A stretch of DNA of 64,000 bases from assembly GCA_050273025.1 (NCBI GenBank), contig CP158635.1:682001-746000 (forward strand). The letters are read 5' to 3'. The DNA comes from Cenococcum geophilum. Taxonomy: Eukaryota. Below the pieces are notes generated by a model. That model ran no database searches. It saw nothing but the letters and a program-made list of their open reading frames with translations, and was not told the DNA's origin. Every line of letters begins with the position of its first letter. Position 1 is the stretch's first letter. Below, one piece after another: positions 15,891 through 63,085 of the stretch. The position numbers were made by a program, and so were the translations under genes.

Positions 15891-15984
15891 TAAGTAATAA
15901 AACTGTATAAAAATTCATTTGCGTAATTAGCATATAACTTTACCTTAATTGCATATTAAGGAATATATAGTTAGCTTTTAAAGT

Positions 15985-17700: not shown

Positions 17701-18019
17701 CCCTTATAACGCTGCTTCGCGTCTAACGGTTATTGATAAGGATTAGCTAATTAAATCGTTAGGATAAATAAGTCGTGATAAGATATTTAAAGCTTTTAAT
17801 ATGTATATAAAATGCTATATAAGCTTGATTTTTGGTAGAGAGTTATGTAATATATAAGCCCTAGCACTCGTCCTTTCTGCAGAATGGAATTCTACAGGCG
17901 CGATTAGAAGGCATAGTGGTTAATTATATTTCTATATAATTGTATAGACGCGTTTACAGACATTTGAAAATGGTGTTTACGCATAGACTAACTCTTATTA
18001 GACGCTAGCGTTGCAAGGG
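17701..18019. mobile_element. MITE (319 bp) with CCC...GGG ends, inserted in the integrase of A
   Basis: TIRs CCCTTATAACGCT / AGCGTTGCAAGGG (identical after de-RIP) plus subterminal GCGTCTAA / TTAGACGC. Flanks TTAT and ATAA. The homologous position in G (~48946) is uninterrupted. Confidence 0.87.
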
Positions 18020-21000: not shown

Positions 21001-22156
21001 CCCTTAATCGCTAAGGGCCTATATATAGGGGTTGCTATAGGTAGGCTAAGTAAGTACTTAGCCAGCGGTAGGGCTAGCTATATGGCTAGTTACTAGGTTA
21101 GTAGCTAGTATAGTAGGCATTATAGGTTAAACTAGGGTATTATAGGCCGTTCTTATATTACTTATAGCTTAATTTAGGGGATTCCTAGCCTTTATCTAAT
21201 TAGCTTATACCTTAATTTAATAAAGGCCTTAGTTAATAGCTAGGCAGTAGTCTATAAGTTCTTTTAACGTCTATATAGTAGTAAAAGCTAGTAATACGGC
21301 CCGCTATAGGTTTAGGGTAAGCTTATTAAAGAGATCTGGAAGTAGGTCTTTTTAAAAAAATCTAGGCTTATCTAGCTAGGTATAAAAAGCGGGTTTAAAA
21401 GGCCGAAAAGGTCTTCGTTATTTTTATGTTTAGACTTTTATAGCTAAGGCGGGCGTTTTATACCCTAAAAGGGTCCTTATAGATAGAAGATAGGTAGTTA
21501 ATTATTTCTTCTTTAGAGAGGAAGGGTTTTGCTAAGTCTTAGGCGTATCGCGGACGTAAATATGTCTATACGTCTTTACTAGTACGGCTAAAAACGTAGG
21601 CCATTTTAGCTTAAGTAATAGGGAAGTGGTCCGCATTAACTTTAAGCTTATCCTATAATTAAAGCTTCTAATTATTAAATATAGGGTCGGCTCCGTCTAT
21701 AAGTAATAGGGGGTTTATAACCTTTGCGGACTATAATAATTCTAATACTATATATTAGGCTAGGGCCTTAAAGACTATAGTAAGTCTATTTAATGGGTCC
21801 TTACTAGATATAGGGGTGCTTTTAGTTTTAAGCAGTTTTTATAGCCGTTTAATTTTAGTATTAGCTACTACAAGCTCCGCCTAAGGGGTTAAGATATTAA
21901 TTATTTCTTTATCTAAGGCGTTTATAGGTCCTATAGCTGCTTTACCTACTACTATGTTTTATAGCATAGTGCTAGGGTATTAGGTAATTCTAAGTAATTT
22001 CTTTAAGGGTTCTAGTCTATGCGTATCTTATAGGTCCTTTCCTTAGGGTTCTATTTTTTTTCTTTAGGTTCTGTTCTTATGGTCCTATTAATGTCCTTAA
22101 GGTCCTATAAATATATTTAAATTCCTTCTTAGGAAGAAAGGGTGGTTTAAGCTTTA

Positions 22157-31103: not shown

Positions 31104-34100
31104 TGTTACGGAACCCCACCGCAGGGGCCTCTATAGGAGAGCCCCGTGCTCTCGCGTACACCTCGCGTATAGCTTATGTCAGCTACGCGTAGGTATATCA
31201 CCTCCTTACGCCCTCGACCCTTACGATCGATCGCGTAACGTCTTATAGACTCCTTGAATACATACGCTTTATAGCCACTGCCCCCGTCCCATAATATTAC
31301 GTTACGCCTTTTTTACTACTAACGTTTAGCCTACGACTAATTCTACGTCTTTATAATACTGTAGGCGCTGCTAAAAGCAGCGTATTTATAAATTACCTTA
31401 CTTTATACTTCTAAGGAACCTATAATAGTAAGACAATATCCCTTATTAGCTACTATATTAAACCTAAAGAATAATCTAATACCTATACTTAACCTACAAC
31501 ACTAATTAATCCTAAGAGAATTTAATTTATTAGCCTTAGCCTTAACCCCTAAGGAGACGGACACCGATAATATCTTATTGTTTATTAACTATATAACTAC
31601 AGATAAGCAAATAGAAGGGCTACTACCTATTAAAATTAAAATATAAGACGCCAAGATATTTGTAAAAATGGTAGTATAAGACCCTAATAAATACTACCGC
31701 CTTCTATAGAACTACTACCTAAAGCTTATATAAGCTGAGATGCGTACTACCTAAGATTGCGATATTATTTAGGACCTATAAGCTTATAAGGCGCTTACTA
31801 ACAATATATATTAAGAAACTAAAGACAGCCTTTGTATATCTAAACGCGACATTTAATAGTTAAAGAAGGCTAAGATTATACTAATTGCTATAGTTACTAA
31901 AAGAGAAGGTATAATTAAATACCTATAATCTTAGCTTAATAAGTATATTTATAACAACGCTAGACACCTCTTTACTATATATAACACCACTTAAGTCTCT
32001 ACGCCCCTAGTAACTTTACCTACTTAACGCTTAACGGGGGGCTAATGCTAAGCAGCTTTACCTAATAGGAACCCCTACTAAAGTAGCAATAATAAAAGCC
32101 ATAATAATTAGACCTAAACTGCTACTATAGGGTCTAATATACGCTACCTTAATCCCCTAGTCTTTTAGGGAGACTATAAAAAATATAGCTACTAGAAGAT
32201 GCAAATCTATAAAAAAAAACTAACTTAGAGCGCCTGCCTTTTTTCTATAGAAGATATTAAAATTGGCTATATTATCGGGCGAATAAAGGGTATACTATTT
32301 AATAGACTCTTCGCCTAATAGGAGACTAGTAGCCCCTAGAAGTGGCAGTCCTACTAAGAAGTCCTTAATAATCTTAACCTAATATACTACGACTATAACC
32401 TACTAGCCACTAACCAAACTAAACTACGTGCCCTAAAGATAAGCCCTATTAAATTATTTAATAAATTCTATATTAAATTCTAGGAATACACCAGAGTTTT
32501 TACCTAAGATAATACTAAAGACTAAGAGGACCTTCTTAAAAAAGTTACTTATTGCCTTAGTTACGCAGCCGCTAGCCATAACTATAATAATATTTATAAT
32601 ATAGTAGTAGCTTTACAAAAGATCGAACGACAACTAAATTAGATTACTACTACTAACTCTTACCTAAATACCTCTCTATAAAAGCCCTTTGGGCCTACTA
32701 AACCTATATATACTAAGCCACTAATACCTACTACCTTAAGTACTACCGGAACTAATATTAATTTCTTTATACTAACCTTCCTATAAAAACTTCTAGATAG
32801 AGAATATAAGCTACTCTAAAAACTAGGACGCTGCTATAGATACCATTAAAAAGGCTATTATTATAATAACCTAAACTGCCTAATAGCTAGGTTTAGTAGC
32901 TACCGCTTAATATCTAACCTAATACCCTAAATACTAAATACGTTACTATATACCACTACCGTTTAAGATAAAGATATAGTAATAGCGGTAAAGTTAAATA
33001 CAGAAACGGAAAACGCTAAGTCCTAGCCCTAAGTCGTAGGTTAGGATACCCTAATAACGGAGGGATCTATATATCGGCTTACTTAATAGATAACTCTATA
33101 AAGATAAACGGACGAAAATAGATAGTTTTACCTATAATAGGAACTACTACCAAAAAATAATATAAAAGCCGTTCTATAATTAATTGTGGAGCTACTAATA
33201 AATTTATAAATACCTAATTTGTATGTACTTATAACCTACCTACCTTACCCTTTACTAAAGCCCGCGCCCTATAACTTGCTAATAGTAATTATACTATATA
33301 AAAGATTACCTATATAGCATAACTCTACCTAGATATAAATAGGCACTAGGAAGAACTCTGGGCCTATATTATTCCACTTACTAACTACCCTATTATCTTT
33401 AGAATAAACTAGCTTAAATAATATAACCCCGCCATTAACTAGAAGAAGAAAAAAGTAATCTTTAACTCTAAATACTATAGAGAGACTTACCTAGGGCATA
33501 GCCTAGCTACCTCTATTTACTCCCTAGGATATTAACCTAAGGAACCTCTTATTATCCTACCTATAACTAATTACTACTATATAAGTGCCCTAGCCTTCTA
33601 CCGTATAGCATATAAGAAAGGCTAAACCATTACTATAGCCTTTTAATTACAACTATATAAGCTTAATAAAGAATAGGACTATGTCCTTTATAGTAATAGA
33701 ATAGACATAGTTAACCTTCTAGAAGACGACGCCCCTACGGAACTCTACGGACTTTTACCTTTAAACTTTAAGAAGTTTATAAAGCTTAAAAAAGGACTTA
33801 CTAATAAAGAACTCTATAAGCTCCTCCTTAAGAGGTACTATAATTTTACTAATATGTGCTTATAAAAGAGCGTAGATATACTCCCCCTATATTGACCTAA
33901 TAACTATACTATTAATATTAAATAAGGAAAAATGCCACCTTATAAGAGACCCTACTTAATATTAAAAGATAAACTTCTAGTTATAAAAAAGTATATTAAT
34001 AAGCACTTTAATAAAGGATTTATTTATCCTAGTATATTACTAGCAGCTACCCTTATCCTTCTTACTAAGAAGCTAGGAGAAGGTATTTAATTCTACGTTA

Positions 34101-37100
34101 ACTATAAAGGACTTAACGCTATTACGATTAAAAACTAATACCTAGTACTGCTTATATATAAGATCCTTAAGCGGCTTAGTTAAGCCAAAATCTATATTAA
34201 GCTTAATATTATTGCTGCCTTTAACTGGCTCTAAATATAGGAAGATAGTAAATAGAAAACCGCATTCGTATTATACTTTAGCTAATTTAAATATACTATT
34301 ATGCCCTTTAGCGTATATAACGGCCTAGGCACCTTTTAAAGCTATATTAATAACGCCTTACGGGACTACCTTAATAACTTCTACTCTGCGTACCTAGACG
34401 ACATACTTATTTATAGTAATAACCTCTTTAAGTATACTAAACATATTTGAAAGGTCCTATAGCGCCTTAGGGACGTAAGACTTTATATTAATTTAAAGAA
34501 ATGCGAAACCCTAATTATAGAAGTAAAATACCTTAGACTAATTGTTATTACTAAGGGTATCTATATAGACTCTAAGAAGGTACGTATAATTACTAAATAG
34601 TAAGCCCTTAACTGCATTAAGGATATATAAGCCTTCCTTAGTTTCACTAACTTCTATTCAAATTTATATACAACTTCTTAGGCGTAGTAGTACTATTTAG
34701 AGCAATAATGCGAATAAAGGGCCTTTCTATAAAAGGAAGAAAAACGTACTTACGCTTTACCTAGATGCCTAAATGCAAGAAGGCGTTCTAAGACCTTAAA
34801 AATGCCTTTACTAAAGCACCTATCCTAGCTTACTTTACACTAAGATAACAACTCTACCTTAAAACCGACTCCTTAGACCACGTTAATGTAGGCGTTCTCT
34901 TTTAGATAGGTAATAACAGTCTTCTTTACTTAATCGTATTCTACTTATCTAAGTTTATATTATAAAAGTATAACTATAAAATCTATAATAAAGAACTCCT
35001 TATAATTATATAAGCGTTTAAAGAATTTTAACTAGAACTCTTTTTAGTAGAGCTTAATTAGCTAACTAAAGTCCTTACGGACCATTATAACCTTAAGTAC
35101 TTTATAACTATAAAGCAGCTAAACTAACGCTAAGTATATTAGAACGAGTTCCTCTCTAGTTTTAACTTTAAAATTATATATAGACTAGAAGTATAAGGTA
35201 CTAAACTTAATAGCCTAATACGCCGCTTATAAGACCTTCCTTAGTCTAAAGATAACCCTTATAATTAGTTTTAATAATAGATAATCCTAAAAGTACGAAA
35301 TTTGGCCCTAGGTATACTACCTATAATTATTACGGCTTAAACAAATACCTCTAAACCGAAGCTTAAACGAATACTATATTACAAAGATACTAAGCTAAAG
35401 AGAAGGAAAAGGGGTCGCTAGGACCGATATAAACAAATATATAGGGTGAGCCGCTAAGGCGCTAGCTTTGGGCGGGCCAAATTATAGGTTAGCAGAATAT
35501 GGCAGAATTTAGCAGGTAACGTGCGATAGCGCTATTACATCACCCCCCTCTTTAAAAGAAAAGCCTACCCTTAGGCTTAGTTAGAAATAGGGTAGGATTA
35601 TAAAATATAAAATAAGGAGATAAAGGGGGTATAAGTATATCTAGACTAAGTATAAAGGGCAATTATAGGCTAAGTAGAAGCACTAGGCTAGAAAGAGTAG
35701 CTACTAAAAGTCTTAGCACGGATCTAACTAATTAGATAACTTTAACCGGCGGTTAAAGTTCCTTAATATCTGAAATTTTACGGTACTAGCAGAAAACGGC
35801 AAAATATGGCAGAATTTGGTAGATAGCTATATTAGGGCTTTGGGGCGTTTTTGTCCCTATATTCTTCCGGTAACTTATTATCTTTATTATATTAGCATTC
35901 TATTTATTTATCTAGGTACTTTAGGGGTCTAGGTATATTAGGGTATTAGTTATAGAATTCCTTAAGCTTTTAGGGGTAGCCTATAAAGTTCTATATAGGG
36001 TACTAGGTTAGGTTAAAATTGTAGCCCTTCCATTAAATATAGTATTTTAGCGTTCCCCGTACTATCTTATAGGCCAGTATTTTATTAACCTCCTATTTAT
36101 TATCACCGTTTACTTAAACTAGTAGGAAAGGCTTGTTCTTTTGTCTAGGTAATAGGTTATTTATAGCTTTCCGTAACTTATCTAGTAAAAAGATAGGGTA
36201 AACCCTAATTAAATCTAGGAGCTTTATCTTATATAAGTTGCCTATCTTCTTAAGAACTTTATATAGTCCTACTATCTAATAGTCCAGCTTATAGCTAGGT
36301 TATTCGGTCTTCTAATTCCTTATTATAACTTATACTATATCGCCAGGGGCAAAATCGGGCTCTTAACGGTGTTTGTTCGCCTACTATTCTATTAACCTCT
36401 AAGCTTTTTCTAGGTTCTCGTGGGCTACTATCTAGGCTTCCTCTAATCGTTTAGCGTACTATTAGGCCTTAGTATAGGATAGCTTTTTTTGTATAGTCTA
36501 GGGTTCTTCTAGCCTTTTCTAGTTAAAGCTTATATGGGGTAAGTATCCCATTTCTAGCTAAATTAGGGTAAACCCTGTAGAGTTATAGGGTAAGGTTGCT
36601 TGCGCGTAGTCTATTAAGGGTAGTAGTTTAGACCAGTTATCCTAAAAATAGTTAATAAAGGGCCTAAGCCTTTAGTCTAGGTACTAATTTATAATCTCTA
36701 TCTAACCGTCTATCTAGGGGTAATAAGCCGTAGAAAGCTTTAGCTTAATACCTAGGATTTAGGTAAACTTATTCCAGAAGGCCGATATAAACTATAGCCT
36801 ATAATTAGATATAATAGTATCTAGTAGTCTGTAGATTTAGTAGACGTAATAAATATATAGCCGGGCTACCTCTTTAGTATTAATATTCTTATAACAGGGA
36901 ATTAAGAATAGGCGTTTACTAAAGCGGTTAACTATAACTATAACTATATTATATCTGTTATGGTCCCTAGGTAGTTTATAAAAGTCTATAAAGATATACT
37001 ACTAAGGGCGCTCTAGTATTAAGAGTGGCTTAAGTAGTCCTAGGGTCTTATCCTATAGGATTATAGCTCTCTAGCAGTCTTTACAGTTCTATATATATCG

Positions 37101-40100
37101 ATTAATATCCACAACTATTCTTGGCTAGTAGTAGCAGTAGTTAATAATTTTACGGGTCTTATTCTTGCTAGGGTATACCATAGAGACTTAGTAATAAGCT
37201 TCGCGGATTAGTTTAGTCCATAGATTATTAACGTTAGGGACTATAAGCCGCTCCTAGTATAGAAGTAATCCTTCCTCCATCTTAAAATTAGGGTCTTCTT
37301 TTACAGCTTATTTACAGAGGGCCCTTAAGGCATTAGCTATACGGTTTATAGTTAGGAGGCAGTTAATTAGCCCTATTAGCTTATCTAAGGACTTCTTTAT
37401 TAGTGCTAGCTTATTTTACTAGGAGTCTAGCTCCTTAAGGATCTATAGGTTAAGCTATTCTAGATAAAGGAGGGCACGCGTCCGATATTAGGTCTTTAGC
37501 TTATCCTAGGGTCCTATATCTTATTCTCTTTAGGTTAAGATATTAGCCTTAAAGTTTTACTTACCAGAACGATATATAATCGTAAAGAAGAATTAGGAGA
37601 GTATTTCGGCCTATTAGGCTTATTATTTAGTAAGCTACTTTATAGTTATAAAGTACTCTAGGGCTTTATGATTTATATATATCTTAATCCAGAAGTTTAT
37701 ACCTTTAAGCTCTACGCGCTATTAGGAGAGTAATTAAATAATAGCTAGTATTTCTTTATTGTGTACTTTATAGTTACACTTAGCCAGATTTATTATCTTT
37801 AAGAAGAAAGCTATAAAGTACTATTCGCCGTCTAGATATAACTATAATAGGATTCCCGCTATAACTCTATTAGAGGCGTCCGTTTCTAGCATTAATTTAA
37901 GGTTTAGATTATAGTAACGAAGGATTAAGGAAGCGATAAGCCGATCCTTTATCTCTTTAAAGGCTTCTATATAGCTATTATTAAAGATAAAAGGCGTATC
38001 CTTCCTAATTAGTCGTATAAGAGGTTTTACTATAATTCCGTAGTTATAGATAAACTATTAGTAGAAGTTATAAAAGCTAAGGAAGAATTAGATTTCTTTT
38101 ATTATATAAAGGGGCTTTTAGTTACGGATTACCTCTACCTTCTTAGGGTTAACCTTAATTTCTTCTATAGTTACGATAAACCTAAAGTATTTTATACGTT
38201 TTACCCTAAACTCGCATTTCTTAATATTAACTTATAAGCCCGCGTTCCGTAGTCTCTCTAGGACCTTCTTAATATAAACTTAATACTTAAGTTTATTATC
38301 TAAGTATATAAGGATATCGTCTAGGTATGCCGTGCAGAATTTGTTAAGGTAATTAAAAAGAACGTTATTTATATACCTTTAGTACGTAGCCAGTTCATTT
38401 ATTAGTCTAAAAGGAAGAACTTTATATTTATAGGAACTATAATAGGTACGGAACGTTGTTAAATCTTTAGATATAGGGTTTATCCTAATTCGGTAGAAAG
38501 CTTAGCAGATATTAAGTTTGGTAAAGATCTTTGCCTAGCTTAGATATATAAGGGTTTTATTAATTAAAGGAATAGGATACCGGTCCTTTTAAGTAATAGC
38601 GTTTAGCTTTTAATAGTCAATATAAAAATAAAGGCCTCTATTAGGCTTTTTTATAAATAGAATAGGGGAAGTAAAAGGGGCTTAACTTAGCTCGATAAAC
38701 CCTTTATCTAGGTTATTAATTAAGTACTACTTTATTACTTTTAGCTTATCCATTAATTAATAGTAGAGGGGGCTATAGCCTAGCAAGTTATTAGCTTCTA
38801 ATTAAATCTTATAATTATATATCTAGTAAGGGGATAACTTATCTAAGGCCGCCTTTAAGAATGCATCCTTATAGTCTATATAAATGGTAAAAAGGAGGCG
38901 TTTAACTAGTTCCTCGTCGGTTTCCTTAGTTAGCCTTTCCTCTCTATTATTAATAATTCGGTTAATTTTATATAGGCTTATTATAAAGACCTTATTATCC
39001 TTCTGGTATATATTAAAGTAAAACACTATAGCGCTAATTGCGGCAATGTCTACGGTAGGGGGGTTACCTAATAATAGGGGCGTACGTAACTTTAGAGACT
39101 TTTAAAGTACTAGCGTTATTATTACTCCTTTTAGCTCCTATTACATCTTTTAAAGGTTATCCCTTATATCCTATTAATACGTTCTTTTCTATACTAGTTA
39201 GATCTATACAATTAGGACATCGTCTATATTACTATCTATCCCACTTTTATACGTAAAGTCCTCTTTAAATATAGCGCTTTAGGAGAGTATCTTTATTAGT
39301 ATAGAGTTCTTTCTAGCTTTATAGCGGGCGTCTTCTTAGGTAAAGGCTAGGTTACGGGCCCAGACATCCTACTAGTAGGTAGGGTTAGCCCTTGCGGCTA
39401 GTGTCTTATAATTAGTTTAGATCTCCCTAATAAAGGAGGGCAACCTTAGTCTATCCTTCGGCTAGATAAACCGTCTTTATTATATATTTAGCCAAATATT
39501 AAAATAGGATATCTATTTTTATCTAAGGATTATATTATAGGACCCTAGGTCTAAGATATAAAAGGGGATACTATATTAGCGTTGTCCGTTAAAAGCGATA
39601 TATAACTTTAAGACGTAGGTAACGGGCTAACCGGCTTAGCCGTTATAGCCTTTTACCTAAACAGGCTTCTCTAGTTAGATAGCTTCTATATTTAGAAACT
39701 TAGTAATATTATTTATATAGGCAGTATTTATAAAGGCAAAGCTATTTACTTTAGTGTTAATAAGGGCTGTTATATTAACTCTATATCCATTTTAAGATAC
39801 TATATATAGAACTATAAAATACTTTCTACCTATTAACTAACTAAAATTAATCTCTTTAAGATCAATAGAGTACCCTAGGGGGGAGTCTTTCCCTAGGGTT
39901 CTTCTTTTCCCGACTTATCGGACGTTTCTCCTTCCTCTATCTCCTTAATATCGCCTATATCCTTTAGCTCCGGGCAGGACGAGGTAAAGTAGCCCTACTT
40001 ATTATAGTTAAAGCACGTAGCCGAGGTAGGGTTAATTAGAGTATTGCGGCGAATACTAGTTAATAGTATAGTATATAACTAGTCGGGCAAGGCTTGCTAG

Positions 40101-43100
40101 TACGTAGTTATAACCATCTTTAGTATAAGAGTAGTCGTAACTTATCTTCCTACTTTAGCTCCTATAGGCGTAGCTAGTGAGTTCTAATTATTATAGAGTT
40201 ACTTTTACTAATTAGGGTAGGCGTTAATCCGCCTTAGTTCTAAGTCTAATAATAGGCAATAAGTTATAAGTCTTTTATAGGTTGGTAGGTTATCTAAGGT
40301 TATAGCGATCTTTTCTTATAGCTAGATTGTTAGCTTATTATATAGGTCTAATTAGTAGTTCTTAAGGGGAACCTAGCCTTCTCCTATAAGGTATAGGAAT
40401 TAAGTCTAGAATTTAGTAAAGGGTTAGTTTAGTTTTATTATTAGGCGATTATAGTTATAACGGGCATCTTATACTTTATTTAGGTTAACATAAATAGCTG
40501 CTAGGTGCTATATTATCTTATTAATAAATATAAATCGGACAGGGAAGTCGTCCTTAAACTTGGCTTAAAGGTGCCGTTAGGCGTCCCTAGTGGTTTAACT
40601 AAAGATATAGAGCATTTTAGCTTCTTTAGAAAGGAAATAGTTATAGTTAACGCAGAGCTTTCCTTATACTTAAATCCTCTAATTCTTAAAGGTAGGGTCT
40701 ATTCTGTTAGACAGTAATAGGGGGTTAGGGAGCTTAACGGACTTTAATTACTTTGTTATTATATCCGTACTCCTTAGTATATTATATTTAGTAGAGTGAA
40801 CAGGTCGGCTAGGGCTTTAAAAAGGGGAAGCTAGGCTATTTTATAGGGCCGTAAGGCTTTCTAGGATCTCTTATAGGGTCTCTTATATATTTCTTACTTT
40901 AAGACAATTGGCTTCCTAGCTAGCTATAAGGGCATAAATCTACTCGCGTATGTCTATAACGTTATTATTATCTTTAATTTCTGATCCTAATTAGATCTTA
41001 GGTTCCTCTTAGGTAAAGGCAGCTCTCTTAAATAAGCTTACTTTAGGTGCTATTGTTAGCTTTCTAAAGTTTGTTGGTATTATACGCTTTAGTTTTAATT
41101 CTAGGGGTATAGGTCCAGTCCTATTTGGCTTATAAGGTAGGATATTATCTAGGCCTTCTTAGGCAATATAGAGTTGTTTTAGTGTCTAAGTATAGCGCGT
41201 TAGTGCGTCGTTATAGACGAAGTTTCTTTAGGGTGGGATATTATTAAGGCCTTCCTAGGCAAGATAGAGAGAGCTTAGTATAATGTTACGGCTTAAATAA
41301 ATGCCTCTAAACCGAAGCTTAAACGAATACTGTATTACGAAGATACTAAGCTAAAGAGAAGGAAAAGGGGTCGCTAGGACCGATATAAACAAATATATAG
41401 GGTGAGCCGCTAAGGCGCTAGCTTTGGGCGGGCCAATTATAGGTCAGCAGAATATGGCAGAATTTGGCAGGTAACGTGCAATAGCGCCGTTACAATAATA
41501 GAGCTAACTATACCCTAGCTTTATACTATAGAACTAGAGTTACCTCCTAAAATTAATAAGCTTATTATTACGGTATATAACACCTCTGTTAACCTATTAT
41601 TGCATTAACTTATTACCATAAAGACCGCTAGCGCCTATATACTACCTACTAACCTCTAAAGTTTAGGTTAGATTAATATAGTAGCTTTAGAAGTAAAAGA
41701 AAATAGGCTCTATTATAGAGGCCGCCTATTTATCCTTAACTTAGAAAATTTATAACGGCAACTAATCTAAATAGCCTACGACCTCTAATTAAGCGGCTAC
41801 TTAGGTAGAGGAGGAACCTATAAGCTTTTTAGCCGATACTACTTTTAGCTAAAAATAATAGACTTAGTTAAACACTTTATAGGCGCCTACTACGGTTATA
41901 AGCGCGCTAAGGCCTTTAATACAAAGTACTAAGGACTACTATACCCTCTACTAGTACCTATATAACAATAGGCAGATATCGCTATAGATTTCATTATTAA
42001 CCTACTACCCTATAAATGATACGGCCGTACCTATAAGAATATCCTTATAATAATATGCTAACTTATAAAAGAGCGCCACTATATCCTAACTAAAGGCGTA
42101 GCCGTTAGTAATATTACTAACACCTTCTTCTATAAAGTATACTAACTATATAGGTTACCTAACTTAATTACGTCTAACTAAGGTATATAATTTAACTTTA
42201 ATATATAGAGATAAATCTACTAACGCCTTAGTATCTCTATTAAAATATCTATATCCTTTTACTATAAAACTACTAGGTAACTAGAAAACGCTAATACTAG
42301 TATAAAAGCGTACCTATAATAGGCAGTTGCCCATAGTTAAGATAACTAGGTAGATTACCTCCTACTAGGTAAATTTATAGTAAATAATTACGTTTTAACT
42401 ACTATAGGACTTATCCCATTCTTTGTAAATAAAGGTTATTACCCCTAATTTAGTATAAAGCTACTAAAACCTATTAATAAGAAACTACTATATAGAAAAT
42501 ACCTTAAGATACTACTTACCGACTAGTATACAAACCGTATAAAAAATCTACTTAACTACTATAAGGGAGAAATGGCCTAGGCTTAAGTAAAGTAGGCCTA
42601 CTTTACTAACTATTATAAAACGCCACCACCAGAGATGCGTATTGGCGACTAGGTATAACTAGATATATATAATATCTCTATATAGAGGCCTATAAAGTCA
42701 CTTAATTATAAAAACCTTGGCCCCTATTTAATTAAATAAGTTATTAATAGGGGAGCCGTATATAAGCTAGAACTCCTATCTACCCTAGCTACCTACGGGA
42801 TATAGCCCATATTTTACCTATAGCTACTATACCTCTATTAGCCTAACCCCTTACTAAAGTAGATATAGCCTAAACCCCTATTAGTACTAATCTAAGATAA
42901 GAACAAAGATAAAAGCTATAAGGAGTAGACCGTTAAATAAATTATTAACTCTAAATACTTTAGTAAAGGTAAAGGACGACGGCTCTACTATAGAGCTATA
43001 TATATAGGATTTAATATAAATTAGCCAGAATGGCAACTATAGAAAGACTTTAAAAATGCAAAGGATTTACTTAGTAACTTTTACTACGCGAACCTATAGA

Positions 43101-43640
43101 AACTAGGCCTAAGTAGAGACTTTATACCTAATCCTCTATAGGAGCCCTTATAGAGTTAAATCGTTATATATTACTATATAAGGGTAAATTACTATTAGAT
43201 TGCCATTAGATTACGGTAAAGTGTAATTATATAACTAAAATATCGTTAAAATGTCTAGGAACTTTAACCAGTGGTTAAAGTTATCTAATTAGTTAGATTC
43301 TTAGATGCTAAGCCCTATTATATAACATTGTTTTAAGCCTTTAGTAATACCCCCCTTTTCTTCTTTTTTATACCTTAAGTGTCCCTTTTATATATATATA
43401 GTAACCACAGCGTCGCTAGAGCTCCGCCTCTATAAGAGGGGGGGTAGTATTATAAAACCCTACTATAGGGGCCTCTATAAGAGAGCCCCGTACTCTTATA
43501 TACACCTTACGTATAGCTTATATTAGCTACACGTAGGTATATTACCTCCTTACACCCTTAACCCTTATGATCGATTACGTAACGTTTTATAGACTTCTTA
43601 AATACATACGCTTTATAGCTACTACCCCCGTCCCGTAATA
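31104..43640 (+). mobile_element. Ty3/Gypsy chromovirus E (~6.4 kb native); LTRs 31104-31296 and 43448-43640
   Basis: 193-bp LTR pair, TSD GTAAC (31099-31103 / 43641-43645), PPT GAGGGGGGGTAG. RT AYLDDIL (~34390), RNase H, integrase (41800-42500) and chromodomain (~42920-43060). Confidence 0.92.
35328..41494 (-). mobile_element. Ty3/Gypsy chromovirus F (6.2 kb), inserted in pol of E; LTRs 35328-35539 and 41284-41494
   Basis: ~212-bp LTR pair, TSD ATAAT (35323-35327 / 41495-41499), PPT next to 35539. CCHC knuckle CFNCxxxGxFxSSC (~39990), RT AYLDDIL (~38320). Confidence 0.92.
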
Positions 43641-46600
43641 GTAACTTACCTAGTTTAATAAAAGAATACACAGTAAAAAGATACTGCTTTTAATTAATGG
43701 CTTTAGCGTCTATAAAGCAGCTATTTAAATACTTATTAAGAATGGCTCTCTTAAGAATATACGCGTAGAGTTCCTTCCTCCTAATTATACCTTAGTATAT
43801 TAGCCTCTTAATTAAGGGATAATTATAAACTTTAAGCTGCTCTACTAGCGATACTAGCTACGATTTATAGTAGAGGTCTCGCTTTAAAATAAGAATCTAA
43901 TTAAGCAGATATACGTTTTATAGGTAATTTAATAGTTAGTTAAAGCTTAGAAGGAAGTTATACTATAGATAATTAAGAATTACTTTATTAAATCTATATT
44001 ATTTAGCTCTTATATAGGCCTACAGCCTTACCCTTAAGATTATTTAGATCCTCCTATGGTTAATAAAATATAGTAAATAGTAGAACAGCTACTTATAGCA
44101 GGAAGGATTTACGCCATAATAAATATTTAGAAATTTATTAAGCTACTAGGTAAGGAAGTAGAAGATTTTTCTAAGGATCTTATTAAGCATATAGTAGAGC
44201 TCTATATAGGGCCTAATCGCGATATAAAGACGGATAAGGAAGCTATTAAGTAACCTTAAATTAAACTTAATAAGGCGCTTATGGCCTTATTATTACGGCA
44301 CTAGTAAAACTTAGCAAAACTTAGCAGAACTTCGCACCGGCAAGTTGCCACAGATTGCCACAGATTGCCGTATATTGTAATTACGTAACGTAAAGATCTT
44401 ATAAAACACCGAACGGCGCTACTCTTCTTCTCCTTTCCTTTCCCTAGCTTTAGATTCTCGTTTATAGACAATCCAATCATACAGGCTTACGCGACCCTTT
44501 TGCCGTGCTTATGTCTCGATTGACTAAGTCGCTAATATTATCTAAAGCTTACTCTACTCTTTCTTCCTAAGAAGGAACTTAAATATATCTACTAAAACAT
44601 AGAATAGGACCATAACGATAGGACCTAAAAGAAAAAAACAGAACCCTAAGAAAAGGACCTACAAAATACGCATAGACTAGAACCCCTAAAGAAATTACCC
44701 AGAATTACCTAATACCCCTACTACCATGCCACAAACCATAGCAGTAGGTAAAGCAGCTGTAGGACCCTTAAATACTTCAGACGAAGAAACAATTAACGTT
44801 TTAACCCCCTAGGCGGAGCTTACGGCTGCTAATACCGAAATTAAACGACTGCGAGAGCTGCTTAAAGCTAGAGATACCCCTATATCTAATAATAAGTCAT
44901 TATTAGACAACTAAAGACTTACTATAGTCCTTTAGGCTCTATCCTAGCGCCTTAATGGACCTACTAAGGCCTATATAGCACCGAAGCGGTCGGCAAAGGT
45001 CGCGGATCCCCTACTACTTATAGACGGAACCGACCCTATATTTGATAATTGGAAGCTTTAATTATAGAATAAGCTTAAAGTTAATGCAGACCACTTCCCT
45101 AATGCCTAAGCTAAAATGGCCTACGTTTTCGGCCGTATTAGCGGAGACGCCTAGACGCATTTACGCCCGTAATACACTAAAGACTTAGCAGACCCCTTTA
45201 TCTCTAAAGAAGAAATAATTAAATACTTATCTTCTATTTATAAAGACCCTTTTAAAGTATAAAACACCCGCCTTAGCTATAAAAGCCTAAATATAAAAAT
45301 AATGGAGACCTTTTTAGCCTTTTAAACCCGCTTTCTATACCTGGTAGGACAGGCCTAGATCCCCTAAAAAGACCTACTACTAGACCTCTTTAATAAGCTT
45401 ACCCTAGACCTATAACGGGCCGTATTACTAGCTTATACTATAGTATAGACGTTAAAGGAACTTATGGACTATTACCTAGCTATTAACTAAGGCCTCTATT
45501 AAATTAAGGCACGCGCTGACTAGCTAAAAACTAGAAACCTTATAAACTAGGCCGCAAGTACTATAAGTACGGCCCGTAGTGCCCCGGTATAATTAGCAAC
45601 TCCTATAGTTAACCTAGCAGCTAGCTACGCAGCTACCCCTACTATAGGCCTAGTGTATACCCGGCCTATATATAGCAACCCCTATATATAGGCCCTTAGT
45701 GATTAAAAAGCTTACTTCTTATATAGTTAAATAGGCCACCCTATAAGGAACTGCCTAATAAAGGCAAAGACAAATAAGGTTTTGTTAATTTAGGAGGATA
45801 GTACGGAGCCGGAAAAAAAGGAACCCTAGAGGAAGACTCCTCTTTAGGGTTAAAAGGGATCGATATATTATATATCAATCTAGGTCGGCTAGTTAGTGAA
45901 AGAAGCTACACTATCCCTTGTACTTTATTTCGCAATAAATATTAAGTTTTAACCTCTGCTTTAGCTAACTTAGGAGCAAATGCCTTTACCTTAATTGATA
46001 TAAAGTGCGCTATAAAACTAGCTGACTTTTTAAATATACCCCTTAAAGAACTGCCTAAACTAGTCCCTATTTACGGTTATAACGGATAGATAGGACTACC
46101 TATTATAACTATCTTATAAATCTACCTCCGCGTTGACGGATAAAGGTAGTATAACGTCCCCTTTCTAATTACGGACCTTAGAAGCCATAATATAATCTTA
46201 GGGAGAAAATAGCTAGCCTATTTAGGCTTATAGCTTAATATACGGCATAGGCAGCTTATCTAGCCCAAAACTATACCCCTAACGCCTTCCTTTATAAAAG
46301 AGATTAGTATTACAATAGAAAACCTTATACAGCCGTAGATAAACACTATTTATTAGGCTAATGCGACGCGTAGGGACTAGGCTTTTAAGAAGGATGTATA
46401 GCTTAATCTATAACAGATCCGTATACTATACCGCCCCCAGACTGCCTATATTATACCACCCGCACTAAAGACTTAAGAAGTCGATAGTAGCCTAGCTAAG
46501 TCCCTAATAGAGAACTTAGGCCCTACGCAGCTATAAAGAAAGGCCAGGGACATTGGACAATATACCAAACTAATAAACCGGAAAGATAACTTACGGAAAA

Positions 46601-48436
46601 TAGAACGTAAGCTAAGGAAGACCATAAACCTTATACCGCAAAATACGGCCTAATAAATATCTATAAAGAAACCTATAGACCTCCCACCAGTTAATATCTG
46701 CTATATTAGCGCTATAGGATTTTACTAAAACCTAGTTTAGCCTAATACCGTTACCTTTATAACTAGCTTATACGAAATTAATTAAATAATTAAAGAGAAA
46801 GAAGCCCTAGCCTAAGAGAAAGGCGAGCTTATAGATAAGGAGCTAGTAGAACAAAAACTACCCCGTTAATACTAGAAATTTAAAAATACCTTCTCCAAAG
46901 CAGCGTTTAATATACTCCCGCCTCACCGACCGTACAACTATAAGATTAAAATTGAGCCGGACAAGGTGGTTACCCTTAGCTATAGCCCCCTCTAATAGCA
47001 ATCTACTGCCAAATTATAGGCCATAAAGCAGTATCTTATTAATAACCTAGATAAGGGCTTTATTAAGCCTAGTTAAGCCCCTTTTAACTTACCTATTCTC
47101 TTTGCCAAAAAGCTAAATAGAGGACTTTGTTTCTATATCGACTACTATAAGCTTAATAATTTAACCCTTAAAGACCGCTACTTACTACCTTTACTTAATA
47201 AAACTTTGGCCTAAATAAGTAAAGCTAAGATCTTTATAAAAGCTTAATATCCGCTAGGCTTTTTACCGGATTAGGATAGACCCTAAATTAGAAGACCTTA
47301 CTATGTTTTAGACCTATTACGGAACGTATAAATATAAAGTACTGCCTTTTAGACTAACTAACGGACTAGCTACATACCAACAATATATAAATGACGTACT
47401 ACTTAACTACCTTAACGACTTCTATATAGCAACCTAGATAATATTATAATCTACTCTAAAAACGAACTGGAATATAAAGAGCATATCTATAAAGTCCTAT
47501 AACAGCTTTAGGAAGCTAGCCTCCAAGCCAATATTAAGAAGTTAGAATTTAGTGTTAAGCATATAAAGTACTTAGGGTTTATTATTAGTATAAACGGGAT
47601 CGAGGCAAACCTAGAAAAGACGGCTATAATTAACTAATAGGTACCCCTAAGGACCGTAAAGGGGGTACAGTTATTTTTAGGGTTCTATAACTTCTACTAA
47701 CACTTTATTAAGAACTATAGCAGAATTACCTGGCTATTAAGCCTACTTACCTATAAGGACCGGCCCTTTTACTTTAACACTATATATAGGCAGGCCTTTG
47801 ACGAGCTTAAGAAACGACTGGTCTCTACTCCCTTACTCGCCCACTTTGACCTAAAATGGCCCTTAATGCTAGAAACCGATGCCTTAGATAGTATTATAGC
47901 TGGCGTTTATTCCTAAAAGTAGATAAACGGAGAATAGCACCCTATTGCTTACTATTTAAAGACTATAGTAAATGCTGAGCTAAACTACCTAATTTACGAC
48001 AAAGAAATGCTGGCTATTATCTCTAGCTTTTAGCACTGGCGAGCCTAACTAGAAGGCACCCCTAAGTCTATCTAGGTAGTTTCCGATCATAAGGCCTTAA
48101 AATATTTTATAATAATAAAGGCCCTTATAGCTTAATAGGCGCGCTAAGCGAACACCCTATCTTAGTTTAACTTCCTAATTATATATAGGCCAGACGCCAC
48201 TAACCGTGTAGACGCTCTTATAAGGCGTAAACAGGATATAAATAACTAGATAGCCGTAAAGATCTTATTACAGACCTAAGCGCTACTACGACTAGAGCAC
48301 CTTGACTTATAAATACAGGCAGAACTAAATACAAACTCTTTAGATGCTAAGATATGCCCTATTGACTCCATAGAACTAAACCTTATTAATAAACTGCTGT
48401 AGGTAAACCGTACGGCCCCTTCTCTATAGGAGTACC

Positions 48437-48692
48437 TGTAAGGGTACTTTTGGTCCCTTACTCGGCTACATCCCGGGAGCTCTCAGGGGCTGCCAAGGCT
48501 AGCCTTCGGCTAGGCCTTGGCCACCCCTTATAAGCTCCTCGGGCTTGCAGCCTCCTTCCTCCCCCATCGGTTCGTCTCCGTACGAGGCTATTGCCTACTC
48601 TTTACCATATCGTCCTCTTCCATCGACTCCCTATGTGACTCATGCTCGGCTTGCCTGCTCCCTACCGTACACCCTGGCAATACTGCCTTACA
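48437..48692. mobile_element. Solo LTR (256 bp) of another family, inside pol of G
   Basis: TGTAAGG...CCTTACA ends, TSD GTACC (48432-48436 / 48693-48697), TATAA motif at ~48527. GC-rich relative to its surroundings. Confidence 0.9.
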
Positions 48693-50200
48693 GTACCGTA
48701 ATAAGGCAAAGAACGTCTCTAGCCCATAGTCCCTTAAAAGTGGACTACTTAAGCACCGCAAACAGCTAGTAGTAGTAGAGGAACAGAACTTACGGACTTA
48801 GCTTATTGCCGAAGCACATACCTAGGTCTCTACGGCCTACCCTAAAAAAAATAAGACCTATAGGATTATTAGCGACCGCTACTACTAGCCCGGAATAATT
48901 ATAGATATTGACCGCTATATACGGAACTGCAATAACTACTATAGGTTTATAATTCCACGAGATAAAACCCTAGGACTATTAAAACCCCTCCTAATACCTA
49001 ACTGCCCCTAGTAATATATCTCTATAGACTTTTATAAGCTACCTCTAGACCATAACAGATATAATATAGTTATAATCCTAGTTAACCGCTTCGGCAAGCG
49101 CCTGTTCTTAATTCCCTGTTATAAGAATATTAATACTAAAGAGGCAGCCTGGCTGTATATCTACTATATTTACCGAATTTACGGACTATTAGACACTATT
49201 ATATCCGACCGCGGGCCGTAGTTTATATCAGCCTTTTGGAATAAGTTTACCCAGATCTTAGGCATTAAGCTAAAGCTTTCTATAGTATATTACCCCTAAA
49301 CAAATAGCCAAACGGAGATTATAAATTAATACTTAGACTAGAGACTCCGGCCTTTTATTAACTACTTTTAGGATAACTGGGCTAAACTGTTGCCCTTAAT
49401 AGACTACGCCTAAGCGACCCTACCCTACGACTCTACCGGATTTGCCCCTATTTAACTAGAAATGGGTTACCTACCCTATATAAGCTTTGACTAGGAAAGA
49501 CTAAAAGGGCCCTAAACTATATATGAAAAACTATCTTATAAGGAAGCCTAGTAGTACGCTAAGCGCTTAGAAGAAGCCTAGAAAGTAGCCTATATAAACC
49601 TAAAAAAGGCCCAGAAATTAATAAAATAGTAGGCGAATAAGTATAGGCGCGAGCCTAACTTTACTATAGGTGATATAGTCTAGGTTATAATAAAGAACTA
49701 GAAAATAAAACAGCCTAGCCGTAAGCTAGACTATAAGATAGCAGGACTATATAAGATCCTTAATAAAGTAGGCAACTCGTATAAGGTTAAGCTCCCAGAC
49801 TTAATTAAAGTTTACCCTATCTTCTTACTAGATAAGCTATAAAAAGCTATAAATAACCTACTACCCAGACAAAAGAATAAACCTCCCCTACTAATTTAAG
49901 TTAATAGCGATAATAAATAGGAAATTAAAGAAGTGCTGGCCTATAAACTTATAAAGGGAACGTTAAAGTATCGTATTAATTAGAAAGGATATAACCTAAA
50001 CCCTACTTAGTACCCTATATAGAACTTTATAGGTAGTTCCCATAAGCTCTAAGAGTTTTATAGCTATTACCCTAGTAAACCCAGACCGCTAAAGTACCTA
50101 GACAAGTAGATAGAATGCTAGTATAATAAAGATAATAAGTTACTAGAAGAATATAAGGACAAGAACACCCCAGAAATTTCTTAGTTATATAAGGTGTTGA

Positions 50201-50261
50201 GATATCTAGGAACTTCAACCGGCGGTTAAAGTTGTCTAATTGGTCAGATTCTTCTGCCAAG
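50201..50261 (+). promoter_or_regulatory. Conserved 3'-UTR module of Gypsy elements (other copies at 9822-9883 minus, 35712-35770 minus, 43250-43312 plus); function unknown
   Basis: Four copies of GATATYNAGGAACTTYAACCGNCGGTTRAAGTTRTCTRATTRGTYAGATY-(n)-TGCYAAG in the same sense orientation within elements C, F, E and G. A regulatory role is inference. Confidence 0.55.
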
Positions 50262-50561
50262 ACTTTTAGCGACAAAGCCTGAGGGCAGGCTTTTTTGGAG
50301 GGGGGGGTAATGTTACGGCACTGGCAGAACTTAGCAGAACTTGGCAGAACTTCGCACCGGCAAGTTGCCACAGATTGCCACAGATTGCCGCATATTGCAA
50401 TTACGTAACGCGAAGATCTTATAAAACACCGAACGGCGCTGCTCTTCTTCTTCTTTCCTTTCCCTAGCTTTAGATTCTCGTTTATAGACAATCCAATCGT
50501 ACAGGCTTGCGCGACCCTTTTGCCGTGCTTATGTCTCGATTGACTGAGTCGCTAACATTAT

Positions 50562-50858
50562 CCCATGCAACGTTGGTGTCCTACTACAGGTGGTCCGTGC
50601 GGAACACCAGAATTAGAAAGATTAATTTAATCAACCACCGTGCCTTCTAATTGTGCCTTTTTTGATTCTAATATCGTCCAACCTACCAAATGCGTCGTTC
50701 CTCCAACTCGTAGCAAAAGAACTGTCTCCGGAGCTTTGGCGGCTGCCTTCGAGCCCTTTGCCAGAGCTTCATATTCCTCATCACAGCTCTAAGATCCTAA
50801 CGATTTAATTGGCTGGAGCTTATCGATAAGAATAGGACTCAAATCAACGTTGCAAGAG
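50562..50858. mobile_element. MITE (297 bp), same family as 17701-18019, opposite orientation, inserted in the pogo transposase
   Basis: TIRs CCCATGCAACGTTG / CAACGTTGCAAGAG, flanks TTAT and ATAA. Internal blocks match the other copy in reverse complement (ATTAGAAGGCACGGTGGTTGATTA; AGCCAATTAAATCGTTAGGAT). Confidence 0.85.
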
Positions 50859-60641: not shown

Positions 60642-63085
60642 ATGACCACCTCAGACGCCGAAGATGCATCTCCCTCACCGGATTACAGTGGAGATCAGGA
60701 CGGGAACGACATGGCCGAACAGAAGGGCCAGCGTGCTTCCGGCGATGCTTCGCCTGCGCAACAGACGGGCAATGGCCAGAAGCTAGCTTCCAATGCAAAG
60801 GACCCGTTGAGACCGAGGAGGAAGAAAGCGAGGAGAGCATGCTATGCGTGTCAGAGGGCGCATCTTACCTGCGGTACGTTAGTTTTTCAATTCCTTCGTG
60901 GTTTGGGCCCTGAAAAGGAGAGCCTATCCAAGAGACCTATTCCTTCGTTATTGGATAACTTCCCATGCGATACTGTTGATTTAACTGTGAATATCTATCA
61001 GGCGACGAACGGCCATGCCACAGGTGTATCAAGCGTGGTCTCCAGGATGCTTGCATGGACGGCGTAAGAAAGAAAGCCAAGTATCTTCATGACGCCCCAA
61101 ATGAAGCTCTCATGCCTGGCATCGGCAGTAATTATCATCATTTAAACGGGAGCCAACCACCAGCCATGCCCGGACAAATATCTGTTCCCAACTCAGGAAC
61201 ACCACTCAGCCAACAATCGAACTTCTACCAACAGCCTCAGCCGGGCAATTTCAATATGTATCCGCAGAGTTCTTCACAGGGACCATTACCCCCTCCAATG
61301 CAGGAGAGCGCAGTGATGAACTCGTTTAGCAACCAGCAAACTCCCATTTCACCTCCTTACAGCTCGAATCCTAATCAACGGACGCCTCCTATTCAACAAA
61401 ATGCTCCCAGCTCGATGCCTCAAGCGTCTCAGGCAGATGCTACCCCAATGCATCATTTCGGCGGACCGCTCTTTGACCCCAGTGATCCTGCGTTGTTCAA
61501 CTTCGATATCGCAAGCTTGAATTTTGGCAATCACTACGGTGCTCTAGAGTTTGGAATGCTTGGGCATATGTCTTCAGGTGCAGCTGACACACCACCCAGC
61601 GACAACAGCATGATGAATCCTCTCAACCAAGCAGCAAACATGTTCAACCCGCAAATGGCAACTTCAACAGGTTTTGCTGAGAACCAGGGAGGTATGACTG
61701 CTGGGTTAGCATTTGGGCCGGACGGTCTTCCTGCCACGGAGTGGCAGAACACACAATCCAGACAGGGGAGTGTTACTCAAGTACAAACACCGCACAACAC
61801 CCCTATCGCAAATATTGACGCTCCTCGCAACGATGGGCTCAACGGTCCTCACGCATATGCCATTGGAGCAGGTCCAAGTAGCCTGTCAAGTGCCAGTCCT
61901 CAATCGGCAGGTGCAGATCTCGGGGCGGGTTTCGACAATGGTCCTATGTCTCCCGCCACTTTTTTCGCTCCCGTGAACCAGCAGCATATGCAGCAACACT
62001 CACCAGCGTTCAATCGGCCGCAACAGCCGCAAGTTTATCAACCGCCTCAGTACCCTCAATCGCAGCAAGCGATACAATCGCAGCCCCGCCCAAGTATTGC
62101 CCTCCACCCACTTCAAGGAAACGCTGCTTCTCGAAAACGGCGCCGCGACACCAGCGCCATCTATGAAGGTATCTCAAAAGCTTATCCCTACACCAGTGGC
62201 TTCCACCGCTTCTTCGGACTTATTCGGGAGCGATTCCCCAAAGACAAAGAGATACGGATTGCTAGAGCACTTGCTGCAATCCGCCCATCTTTCATTGCTT
62301 GCACTAAGGATTTAACGGATCAAGATCTCGTGTTCGGCGAGAAGAACCTGCAACGCCAACTGCTTACCTACGAAGACTCGATCGAGAAAATCGGCACGCC
62401 AACTATCATATGCCGTCGGACAGGCGAAGTGGCAGCTGTAGGGAAAGAATTCAGCATCCTTACCGGCTGGCGGCGTGAAGTGCTGTTAGGCAAAGATCCG
62501 AACGCAAACATCAACTGGGGCAGCTCTAGCGGCTCTCAATCAGCGAATACCAGCGGGAGCACGTCTCGCGGCGCCATGACGCCGTTGCTCGCAGGCCAAG
62601 AACAGGACACGGGCCCGCGCCCCGTCTCAATCGCCGAGCTAATGGACGAAGATTCCGTCGTGCAGTTCTACGAGGACTTTGCGCAGATGGCGTTTTGCGA
62701 CTCGCGCGGCTCCGCGCTGCGCTCCATCAAGCTGCTCAAGTACCGCACGAAGGAGGACATGATGAAGCTGGAGGAGCTCGCGGCCAACGAGGGCAAGGGT
62801 GTCAAGGCGGATCCGCCGGTCAAGCTGGAGAGCTCGATCGGTGGCGAGTCAGGCATGTATAGACTCGGGGAAAGAGAGGGTATGGTGCAGTGCATGTGCC
62901 AGTGGGTGATCAAGAGAGACATTTTCGATATGCCTATGCTGATTGTTATGAGTGTACGTTTTTTCCTCGCTTTAACCACCCCATCCCCCTTTCTCCTCCT
63001 ATCTCCATCTCCCCCTATCCACCCTCACCTTCCCCTCATAGGCCACAACTAACGTTATCCTCCGCAGATCTTGCCGGAAATATGA
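60642..63085 (+). CDS. acuK: Zn(II)2Cys6 transcription activator of gluconeogenesis with C-terminal PAS domain (AcuK/Ert1 orthologue); exons 60642-60873, 61002-62953, 63068-63085
   Basis: Spliced cluster [47 protein letters not shown]; conserved [52 protein letters not shown] and [19 protein letters not shown]. Confidence 0.9.

Follow-up and report, generated by a model that had tools for sequence, protein, structure and literature searches.

Short palindromes with proposed cis-acting roles have been described in several long terminal repeat (LTR) retrotransposons. Sirevirus elements, a plant Ty1/Copia lineage, carry repeated palindromic boxes and an inverted repeat flanking the polypurine tract (PPT), as set out by Bousios et al. 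(2010, PMC2829016; 2016, PMC4728375). In Pezizomycotina, GalEa elements of the Copia superfamily possess a Conserved Hairpin Site, and Cenococcum geophilum is named as rich in GalEa by Donnart et al. (2017, PMC5445492). Palindromes termed PAL have been proposed to serve dimerisation in Ty1, and segments of the bipartite primer-binding site (PBS) lie in the 3′ untranslated region (UTR) of Ty3 (PMC4974528). Here we analysed a 64,000-nt stretch of C. geophilum DNA (GenBank assembly GCA_050273025.1, contig CP158635.1, positions 682,001–746,000 of the forward strand; hereafter the window, numbered from its first letter) and describe M1, a palindromic module of ~65 nt lying between the end of pol and the 3′ LTR in four of its Ty3/Gypsy elements. 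Apart from the PBS, the PPT and the ends of the LTRs, very few cis signals of LTR retrotransposons are known, and almost none are known for the Gypsy elements of ectomycorrhizal and plant-associated ascomycetes, whose large genomes they fill.

M1 is like the Sirevirus boxes in being a conserved dyad-symmetric non-coding motif with CGG/CCG triplets at its core and the capacity to form a hairpin, and in being common to elements whose non-coding DNA is otherwise very divergent. The Sirevirus boxes occur both within the LTR and in the linker that precedes the 3′ LTR, and the inverted repeat adjoins the terminal PPT. However, the boxes form arrays of 8–32, mostly in U3 upstream of TATA, whereas M1 is single-copy and outside the LTR. 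The triplet order of the M1 core, CCG-S-CGG, is everted relative to the Sirevirus CGG-CCG (PMC2829016), and M1, comprising 23 nt plus ~40 nt of fixed flanks in fungal Gypsy elements, has no sequence relationship to these plant Copia boxes. The GalEa site is likewise a short conserved hairpin palindrome, with an 'extended' version common to families of one species, but it lies right after the 5′ LTR in the place of the PBS, belongs to another superfamily, and consists of 9-bp motifs with a variable loop. M1 differs from both systems in superfamily, position, copy number and sequence. CCAAT boxes are found in the U3 regions of LTRs and in fungal promoters dependent on the CCAAT-binding complex (CBC). 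M1 shares with these, as a motif resemblance only, an inverted CCAAT with favourable flanks and adjoining factor-like motifs, but it lies outside the LTR and not upstream of the promoter of the genomic RNA.

No description of M1 was found in the literature on retrotransposon palindromes, chromoviruses and fungal elements, a search that left Repbase, Dfam and the supplements of papers outside its range. The main text of a recent paper on the Cenococcum genome and its transposable elements contains neither 'palindrom' nor 'hairpin' (PMC12910237). An earlier reading of the window (hereafter the first-pass annotation) had recognised no described element of this kind either, and Rfam gave no match.

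The M1 module and its host elements

The whole window was scanned for the 23-nt palindrome with a pattern tolerant of repeat-induced point mutation (RIP), allowing up to two mismatches. Exactly four matches were obtained (9851–9873, 35738–35760, 43260–43282 and 50211–50233), against a chance expectation of 0.02, and none of 100 shuffles attained four. Consistently, an nhmmer profile of the whole module returned the same four full-length copies and no further ones, and these are the four places at which the first-pass annotation had put the module:

50199–50261, plus strand: M1 of element G (nhmmer E 5e-20), comprising an upstream box (50199–50210), the 23-nt palindrome (50211–50233), a small inverted-CCAAT hairpin (50235–50248) and TGCCAAG (50255–50261)
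43248–43312, plus strand: M1 of element E (E 1.6e-18), palindrome at 43260–43282 with its CCGGCGG core RIP-mutated
35712–35772, minus strand: M1 of element F (E 8e-20), palindrome at 35738–35760, sense centre C
9822–9885, minus strand: M1 of element C (E 9.5e-21), palindrome at 9851–9873, sense centre C

The palindrome is a perfect 11 + 1 + 11 repeat around the core CCG-S-CGG. In a sense alignment, with C and F reverse-complemented, ~65 nt are common to the four copies and likeness collapses on either side. All four modules lie in the sense of their element, as annotated before, with G and E on the plus strand and C and F on the minus strand. In G, E, F and C, the 3′ LTR starts ~49, ~136, ~172 and ~212 nt, respectively, after the end of M1, in line with the 50–210 bp given earlier. 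The accompanying claim that the surrounding UTRs do not align needs qualifying: it describes the collapse outside M1, but not G and F, whose flanks are related. Their pol 3′ ends are 78% identical in an alignment reaching within 29–71 nt of M1, their upstream flanks are 0.96 identical over 114 nt in a RIP-blind purine/pyrimidine alphabet (in which unrelated flanks score 0.75–0.90 and true relatives at least 0.95), and a PPT-proximal hairpin is common to both.

The host elements were mapped by self-BLAST, repeat finding and a Pfam scan of read-through translation:

44293–50562, plus strand: element G, Ty3/Gypsy
31112–43649, plus strand: element E, hosting the nested F
35322–41494, minus strand: element F, nested in E
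9306–17520, minus strand: element C, nested in A
8246–9308 and 17523–22162, minus strand: element A, split by the nested C

By their sequence features, we class the hosts as Ty3/Gypsy chromovirus LTR retrotransposons. The read-through translation of G has Pfam matches, in this order, to RVT_1, RT_RNaseH(_2), Integrase_H2C2, rve and SH3_Tf2-1. Its pol end is 42% identical to residues 1216–1703 of P0001, which bears a chromo domain (PF00385); in the Pfam scan the chromo domain had no score on the RIP-mutated G translation itself. (P0001, P0155, P0164 and P0168 are labels of intact pol homologues from a protein search.) The LTR pairs of C, F and G are 92–94% identical, and the LTR start is marked by a G-run followed by TGTTAC. 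RIP is heavy in all elements, which have a GC content of 0.28–0.40 and no long open frames. The window contains no tRNA genes.

The 3′ end of G and the corresponding junction of A are laid out as follows:

50182–50184, plus strand: TAG stop of G pol, where the intact homologue P0164 ends
50274–50310, plus strand: hairpin (50274–50293), T-run and G-rich PPT of G, with the LTR from 50311
50311–50562, plus strand: 3′ LTR of G, pairing with 44293–44542 at 94% identity
8217–8262, minus strand: module-less junction of A, the pol end joined straight to the PPT hairpin

The C-terminus of P0164, an intact G-like protein (...DKNAPEIS), falls exactly at the TAG of G; M1 starts 15 nt and the palindrome 27 nt further on. 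In F-like relatives the C-terminus reads ...DKNAPKA. M1 is non-coding, because the pol of the intact homologue ends upstream of it at this stop. We considered whether the conserved block might instead be the C-terminal coding end of pol (...LR[C/Y]LGTST[G/A]G-stop), or a recoding signal at a stop in the right arm of the palindrome. The pol frame of G-, F- and E-like copies and of family (1,0) does enter the palindrome and stops at TGA or TAA in its right arm, and the closest long intact homologue, P0001, ends ...FSTGG. Against this, P0164 and the F-like relatives end as described, in C-like and L001-like copies the frame is a different one or a TAA stands two codons before the palindrome, and conservation extends at least 22 nt beyond the putative stop. 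Moreover, the ...GG termini among 120 intact homologues represent the translated G-rich PPT (...SLRASFFxxGG, some continuing as ...GGNVT), so the ending of P0001 is no evidence for the palindrome. In other lineages pol is indeed translated through the hairpin–PPT region, and some C-termini run into the LTR (...GGNVT). A pol end or recoding site within the palindrome was rejected for G and F, for which the homologues P0164, P0155 and P0168 terminate upstream, and is scarcely credible as an account of M1 at large.

A and G are 80–84% identical and share the pol end, the downstream hairpin (AAAGCCTRAGGGCAGGCTTT), the T-run and the G-rich PPT. Between pol end and hairpin, G has ~107 nt including M1 and A has 20 unrelated bases, a clean block difference that bears out the earlier remark that A lacks the module. 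M1 did not look like a miniature inverted-repeat transposable element (MITE) or other small insertion: no target-site duplication was found at the A/G difference, where a segment is replaced, and the position and orientation of M1 are constant. Because they have the same pol end and the same PPT hairpin, G, F and A form one clade; C and E belong to other clades. The unit of hairpin, T-run and G-rich PPT directly before the LTR was also observed in F (35560–35579, minus strand), in A (8217–8236, minus strand) and in a short element (7961–7998).

Conservation, borders and position of M1

A scan of metagenome contigs with the 23-mer yielded at least 123 loci (L001–L123) and, after deduplication, 121 oriented copies, the four of the window included; counts over these 121 copies apply among the matches listed and are a lower bound on the total. 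Searching all 0.94 Mb of the loci with nhmmer added only three more, diverged copies. The 23-mer pattern had no match in IMG/VR and none in 596 Gb of prokaryote genomes. All listed copies lie in RIP-mutated Ty3/Gypsy elements from four deep pol clades.

Conservation extends beyond the palindrome by which the loci were found. Positions −12 to −1 (AAGATRTYNAGG) and +23 to +40 (RTCTRATTRGTYAGATTC), which the search left unconstrained, show only C/T or G/A polymorphism across the 121 copies, the exceptions to this RIP-type variation being positions −4/−3 and scattered single copies. Just beyond the block borders, transversion minorities climb to 30–60 of 121, and the flanks are unalignable between families. 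Because a sharply bounded, base-for-base block recurs in four pol clades amid unalignable linker, we judge M1 to be a functional, selectively maintained non-coding cis element. A further component, TGCCAAG (searched in RIP-tolerant form), follows 2–6 nt after the block in 96 of 120 copies, compared with 9 of 119 for a control stretch.

The least mutated copies (L055, L059, L082 and L103) back the palindrome and the small CCAAT hairpin of the de-RIPed consensus proposed in the first-pass annotation. Its GATATC box did not hold up: of the 121 copies, 58 have A and 54 have G at position −7, and the ancestral upstream box was probably GATGTC, of which GATATC would be the RIP-mutated form. L082 is little RIP-mutated because its element is truncated beside unique DNA. 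In the flank family (5,x), to which L082, L002 and L003 belong, no Pfam domain was detected in the upstream 5 kb of L002 or the upstream 1.8 kb of L003.

In the E-like family, a palindromic E-box-like TCACGTGA lies ~25–35 nt before the M1 palindrome (L103:270–300; window 43215–43245). It is RIP-mutated to TTACGTAA in most E-like copies and is found 3′ of M1 in L082. At 12 loci (L016, L026, L030, L034, L047, L070, L071, L089, L093, L106, L107 and L119), an identical 23-mer is part of a Tourist/PIF-like MITE terminus that begins GGGCCCGTTTCACC..., comes from other metagenome samples and has nothing but the 23-mer in common with M1. We set these loci aside as relatives of M1 and take the match to be a coincidence multiplied by a repeat family.

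The position of M1 is strictly kept. In all 31 elements with a detectable LTR pair, the LTR starts 52–341 nt past the palindrome, so that M1 is never within the LTR, and there is one M1 copy per element. For 63 copies, the loci extend 2 kb or more upstream. In 47 of these pol is encoded on the strand of M1, in 15 no pol could be detected, and in one the only pol lies on the opposite strand. M1 is thus in sense orientation in 47 of 48 copies with a placeable pol, and the lone exception reflects the pol of a neighbouring element. The first-pass annotation had offered an enhancer or an RNA structure as the function of the module. The enhancer half of that suggestion is weakened, because an M1 that precedes the LTR in 31 of 31 elements is not copied to the 5′ promoter. 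A promoter role is likewise disfavoured, because M1 is strictly in sense and within the transcript yet outside the LTR, and U3 is where a promoter element would have to lie.

Contigs of three metatranscriptome runs and raw reads from a single RNA-seq run were compared at 80% likeness or more. Sequence from the 3′ region of G, or from its relatives, occurs in root and fungus metatranscriptome runs. Summed depth over the module bin (50193–50239) was low (X1, 23.5; X2, 4.3; X3, 64.6; raw reads, 0–1), and RNA libraries may contain DNA. The very large summed depth over the PPT-hairpin bins comes from RNA-library contigs of other families.

Mosaic 3′ ends, the flipping centre base and candidate roles

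Flank sequences fall into 8 upstream and 11 downstream clusters, counts that are approximate because single linkage chains partly related families. In a pol tree of 27 long copies and P0001, four deep clades are set apart by branches of 0.56–0.70 changes per site, partly inflated by RIP. M1 occurs in all four clades and in 24 of the 27 long pol copies. This presence map, which the first-pass annotation had proposed, supports its description of M1 as a discrete cassette common to distinct Gypsy lineages.

The 3′ ends of these elements are mosaic. The E-like upstream flank, conserved at 0.97–1.00 in the RIP-blind alphabet, is joined to at least four downstream types: the E-type, the L004-type (L043, L062 and L117), the C-type (L038) and another (L077). 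Likewise, the pol of L001 and L059 is nested in the E-like pol clade, yet their downstream linker is of a different type. The breakpoints lie at M1 or a few tens of bases 3′ of it. Such ends fit the recombination implied by the earlier proposal of a cis module exchanged between lineages, but they do not settle it against vertical descent under strong constraint, since the −4/−3 differences and the module-less sister lineages fit both.

Mosaicism also raises the question of whether M1 has any function of its own. It might be a patch recently spread by template switching, a hitch-hiker or selfish hot spot conserved only through shortness of time. The mosaic 3′ ends and the multiplication of module-less sister lineages would suit such a patch, and neither covariation nor another sign of long-term constraint can be shown. 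However, the borders (−12 and ~+40) are sharp and identical in all flank families, where random tracts should end variably, and a very recent sweep is hard to reconcile with borders that are the same everywhere. M1 also spans four pol clades separated by the long, partly RIP-inflated branches given above, and family-specific −4/−3 differences indicate descent within families. We consider a functionless patch improbable.

Inside the palindrome, the centre base is the only common transversion site, with G in 72 and C in 49 of the 121 copies. Five flank families each contain both states, which require at least 13 changes on flank-only trees, a rough figure because the trees are quick ones built from RIP-mutated DNA. 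Twelve copies outside the scan pattern have G or C at the centre and never A or T, and an nhmmer search leaving the centre unconstrained likewise gave no A or T. In a perfect palindrome, a complemented centre is equivalent to inversion of the whole. The flipping may record strand switching across a hairpin or cruciform.

A second palindromic module, M2, accompanies M1 in many copies. It is a 27-nt palindrome, GATTTTCCATSCC-N-GGSATGGAAAATC, whose outer arms contain CCAAT/ATTGG, and it lies in the linker, outside the LTR. The loci hold 74 copies and the window one:

9730–9784, minus strand: M2 of element C, 27-nt core at 9744–9770, outer arms CCAAT/ATTGG, 80 nt 3′ of M1 in sense

M2 is found 47–108 nt 3′ of M1 in 64 of 121 copies. 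Its orientation is constant inside families and differs between them (41 versus 23 copies), and its centre is complemented relative to the flanks in 10 of 74. One M2 subfamily carries a symmetric double C↔G change (ATCCC/GGGAT versus ATGCC/GGCAT) that keeps the dyad symmetry.

These features bear on a possible role as double-stranded DNA. M1 could be a cassette combining a dimeric Zn-cluster-type dyad (CCG-N-CGG), a CCAAT box for Hap/CBC and a PacC/Rim101 site, which opens chromatin or drives or modulates transcription near the 3′ LTR, antisense or read-out transcription included. We take the Hap/CBC, PacC and Zn2Cys6 assignments to be motif resemblances. The inverted CCAAT of M1 reads CCAATCAG with its flanks on the other strand, and the outer arm of M2 has the same 8-mer. 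In the least RIP-mutated copies the site reads TCTGATTGGTCAGA (L082), the pentamer with what we take to be consensus flanks. The variable spacing of TGCCAAG and its excess over the control stretch, the occurrence of M2 either way round between families, conservation that covers every base beyond what pairing would demand, and the E-box-like TCACGTGA upstream in the E-like family (L103) all point the same way, as does the M2 double change in preserving dyad symmetry, although it preserves the hairpin equally. The Sirevirus CGG-CCG palindromic boxes have been interpreted as cis-regulatory (PMC2829016). On the other hand, a module outside the LTR in 31 of 31 elements is not copied to the 5′ promoter and could serve only the 3′ LTR, which is of no help to the element. 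Despite frequent shuffling, it is in sense in 47 of 48 copies and was never captured into U3, and some exact 7–8-mer matches in 65 nt are to be expected given the many known motifs. We regard a DNA cassette as possible but doubtful.

Folding predicted both M1 hairpins in seven of seven natural copies. Hairpins of this kind might be sources of small RNA or another handle for host silencing. Perfect 10–13-bp hairpins are predicted in the transcript, and the same has been proposed for the palindromes of maize Sirevirus elements (PMC4728375). Yet a purely harmful feature would not stay invariant across clades, and the stems are short for Dicer substrates. A silencing role is very improbable.

We tentatively prefer, at somewhat less than even confidence and from sequence evidence, a reading in which M1 belongs to the genomic RNA or cDNA as an accessory cis element. 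It would form a palindromic hairpin or link dimers, and would also provide a patch of homology at which templates are switched. M1 lies in the 3′ linker of the genomic RNA, past the pol stop and before the PPT. In both the genomic RNA and the minus-strand cDNA, the palindromes of M1 (23 nt) and M2 (27 nt) would form hairpins. Two co-packaged RNAs could pair through the palindromes as an extended duplex, in the way of retroviral and Ty1 dimer-linkage palindromes. An identical palindrome across families would offer a homology patch where reverse transcriptase switches templates, and such switching would explain both the mosaic 3′ ends and the sharing across families. Like the retroviral dimer initiation site (DIS) and Ty1 PAL, M1 is self-complementary and able to pair between copies, and such sites are places of template switching; Ty3 provides a precedent for replication cis elements in the 3′ UTR of a Ty3/Gypsy element (PMC4974528). 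Hairpin or dimer formation and any effect of M1 on packaging or recombination are what we infer from these features.

Several observations weigh against an RNA or cDNA element of this kind. The folding z-scores of 91-nt stretches are weak (−0.07 to −2.2). Paired positions vary independently: pair 25/36, for example, is C-G in 86, T-G in 16, C-A in 16 and T-A in 2 copies. Because all of this variation is independent RIP noise, it neither backs nor refutes a structure. A search of Rfam 15, also proposed in the first-pass annotation, gave no match at gathering score in the window and none at E ≤ 1 in four less RIP-mutated loci. An invariance that extends to every base, those of the loop among them, is better explained by a protein recognising the sequence than by a stem alone, the variable spacing of TGCCAAG looks like the grammar of a DNA site, and M1 contains exact extended matches to the consensus motifs of the CCAAT complex and PacC/Rim101. 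The invariance of the palindrome itself is partly forced, because the loci were retrieved with the palindrome pattern. No intact element bearing M1 was found: every copy is RIP-mutated and dead, and no fetched locus has an open frame of pol length. DIS and PAL palindromes are 6–16 nt long and lie in the 5′ leader or gag (PMC4974528), whereas M1 has 23 nt and lies 3′ of pol. By eye, M1 showed no complementarity to tRNA or to the 5′ UTR/PBS region of G, F, C, E or A, no formal search having been made.

The module is also dispensable. In a sample of 66 pol 3′ ends biased to module-bearing loci, M1 lies within 500 nt of 47 and is missing there from the other 19. Among the latter are an A-like lineage of five or more copies and a C-like copy that has lost ~150 nt by deletion. 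A-type module-less junctions are also present in RNA-library contigs. Because sister lineages multiply without it, M1 is accessory rather than essential.

A stronger form of the dimer-linkage proposal holds that M1 and M2 link RNAs between distinct chromovirus families of one genome, which, by keeping identical 23-nt and 27-nt palindromes, would co-package heterodimers, with reverse transcriptase re-assorting pol with linker and LTR lineages at these sites. We consider this unlikely.

Neighbouring features and significance

The remaining features of the window concern the LTRs and the surrounding DNA. In its U3 region (50311–50440), the G LTR has a TATAAAA box preceded by a TTACGTAA palindrome and by two motifs, of the GGCAGAACTT and TTGCCACAGA types, each in triple tandem. 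Because these motifs precede TATAAAA, the G LTR has promoter-like repeats of its own, separate from M1. Inside C, several tandem arrays with periods of 12, 17, 20 and 41 nt lie in a GC-richer internal stretch (14533–16366).

A short element at 6507–8202 consists of an LTR, 1.29 kb and a second LTR. Its LTRs are 96% identical, its GC content is ~0.44 and it has no long open reading frame. Its pre-PPT sequence matches the loose ends of the RNA-library contigs that give the very high PPT-hairpin depth. The LTR at 7999–8202 is flanked by a PPT on both sides (7961–8236), that of the short element on the plus strand and that of A on the minus strand, so that two elements stand head to head on one LTR, perhaps through LTR–LTR recombination or inversion. 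A host gene at 61055–63052 encodes an ERT1/AcuK-type Zn2Cys6 regulator of gluconeogenesis, 88% identical to its counterpart in Glonium stellatum and 99% identical to one assembled protein. The Glonium match points to a member of Gloniaceae, probably Cenococcum, as the source of the window.

M1 is short, sharply bounded, invariant across deep clades, optional and located at recombination junctions, and so offers a tractable handle on how these elements package, recombine and regulate their RNA and on how families interact in one genome. Its 23-mer is also a practical marker, with more than 100 metagenome copies and none in 596 Gb of prokaryote genomes. If M1 were a binding site for a DNA factor, a regulatory sequence would be kept outside the LTR in a manner that present models do not explain. 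If the modules did link RNAs between families, they would constitute a shared recombination hub, making retrotransposon families one gene pool; the flip-flop of the centre base would then record strand switching across the hairpin, with perfect pairing between flip and flop variants.

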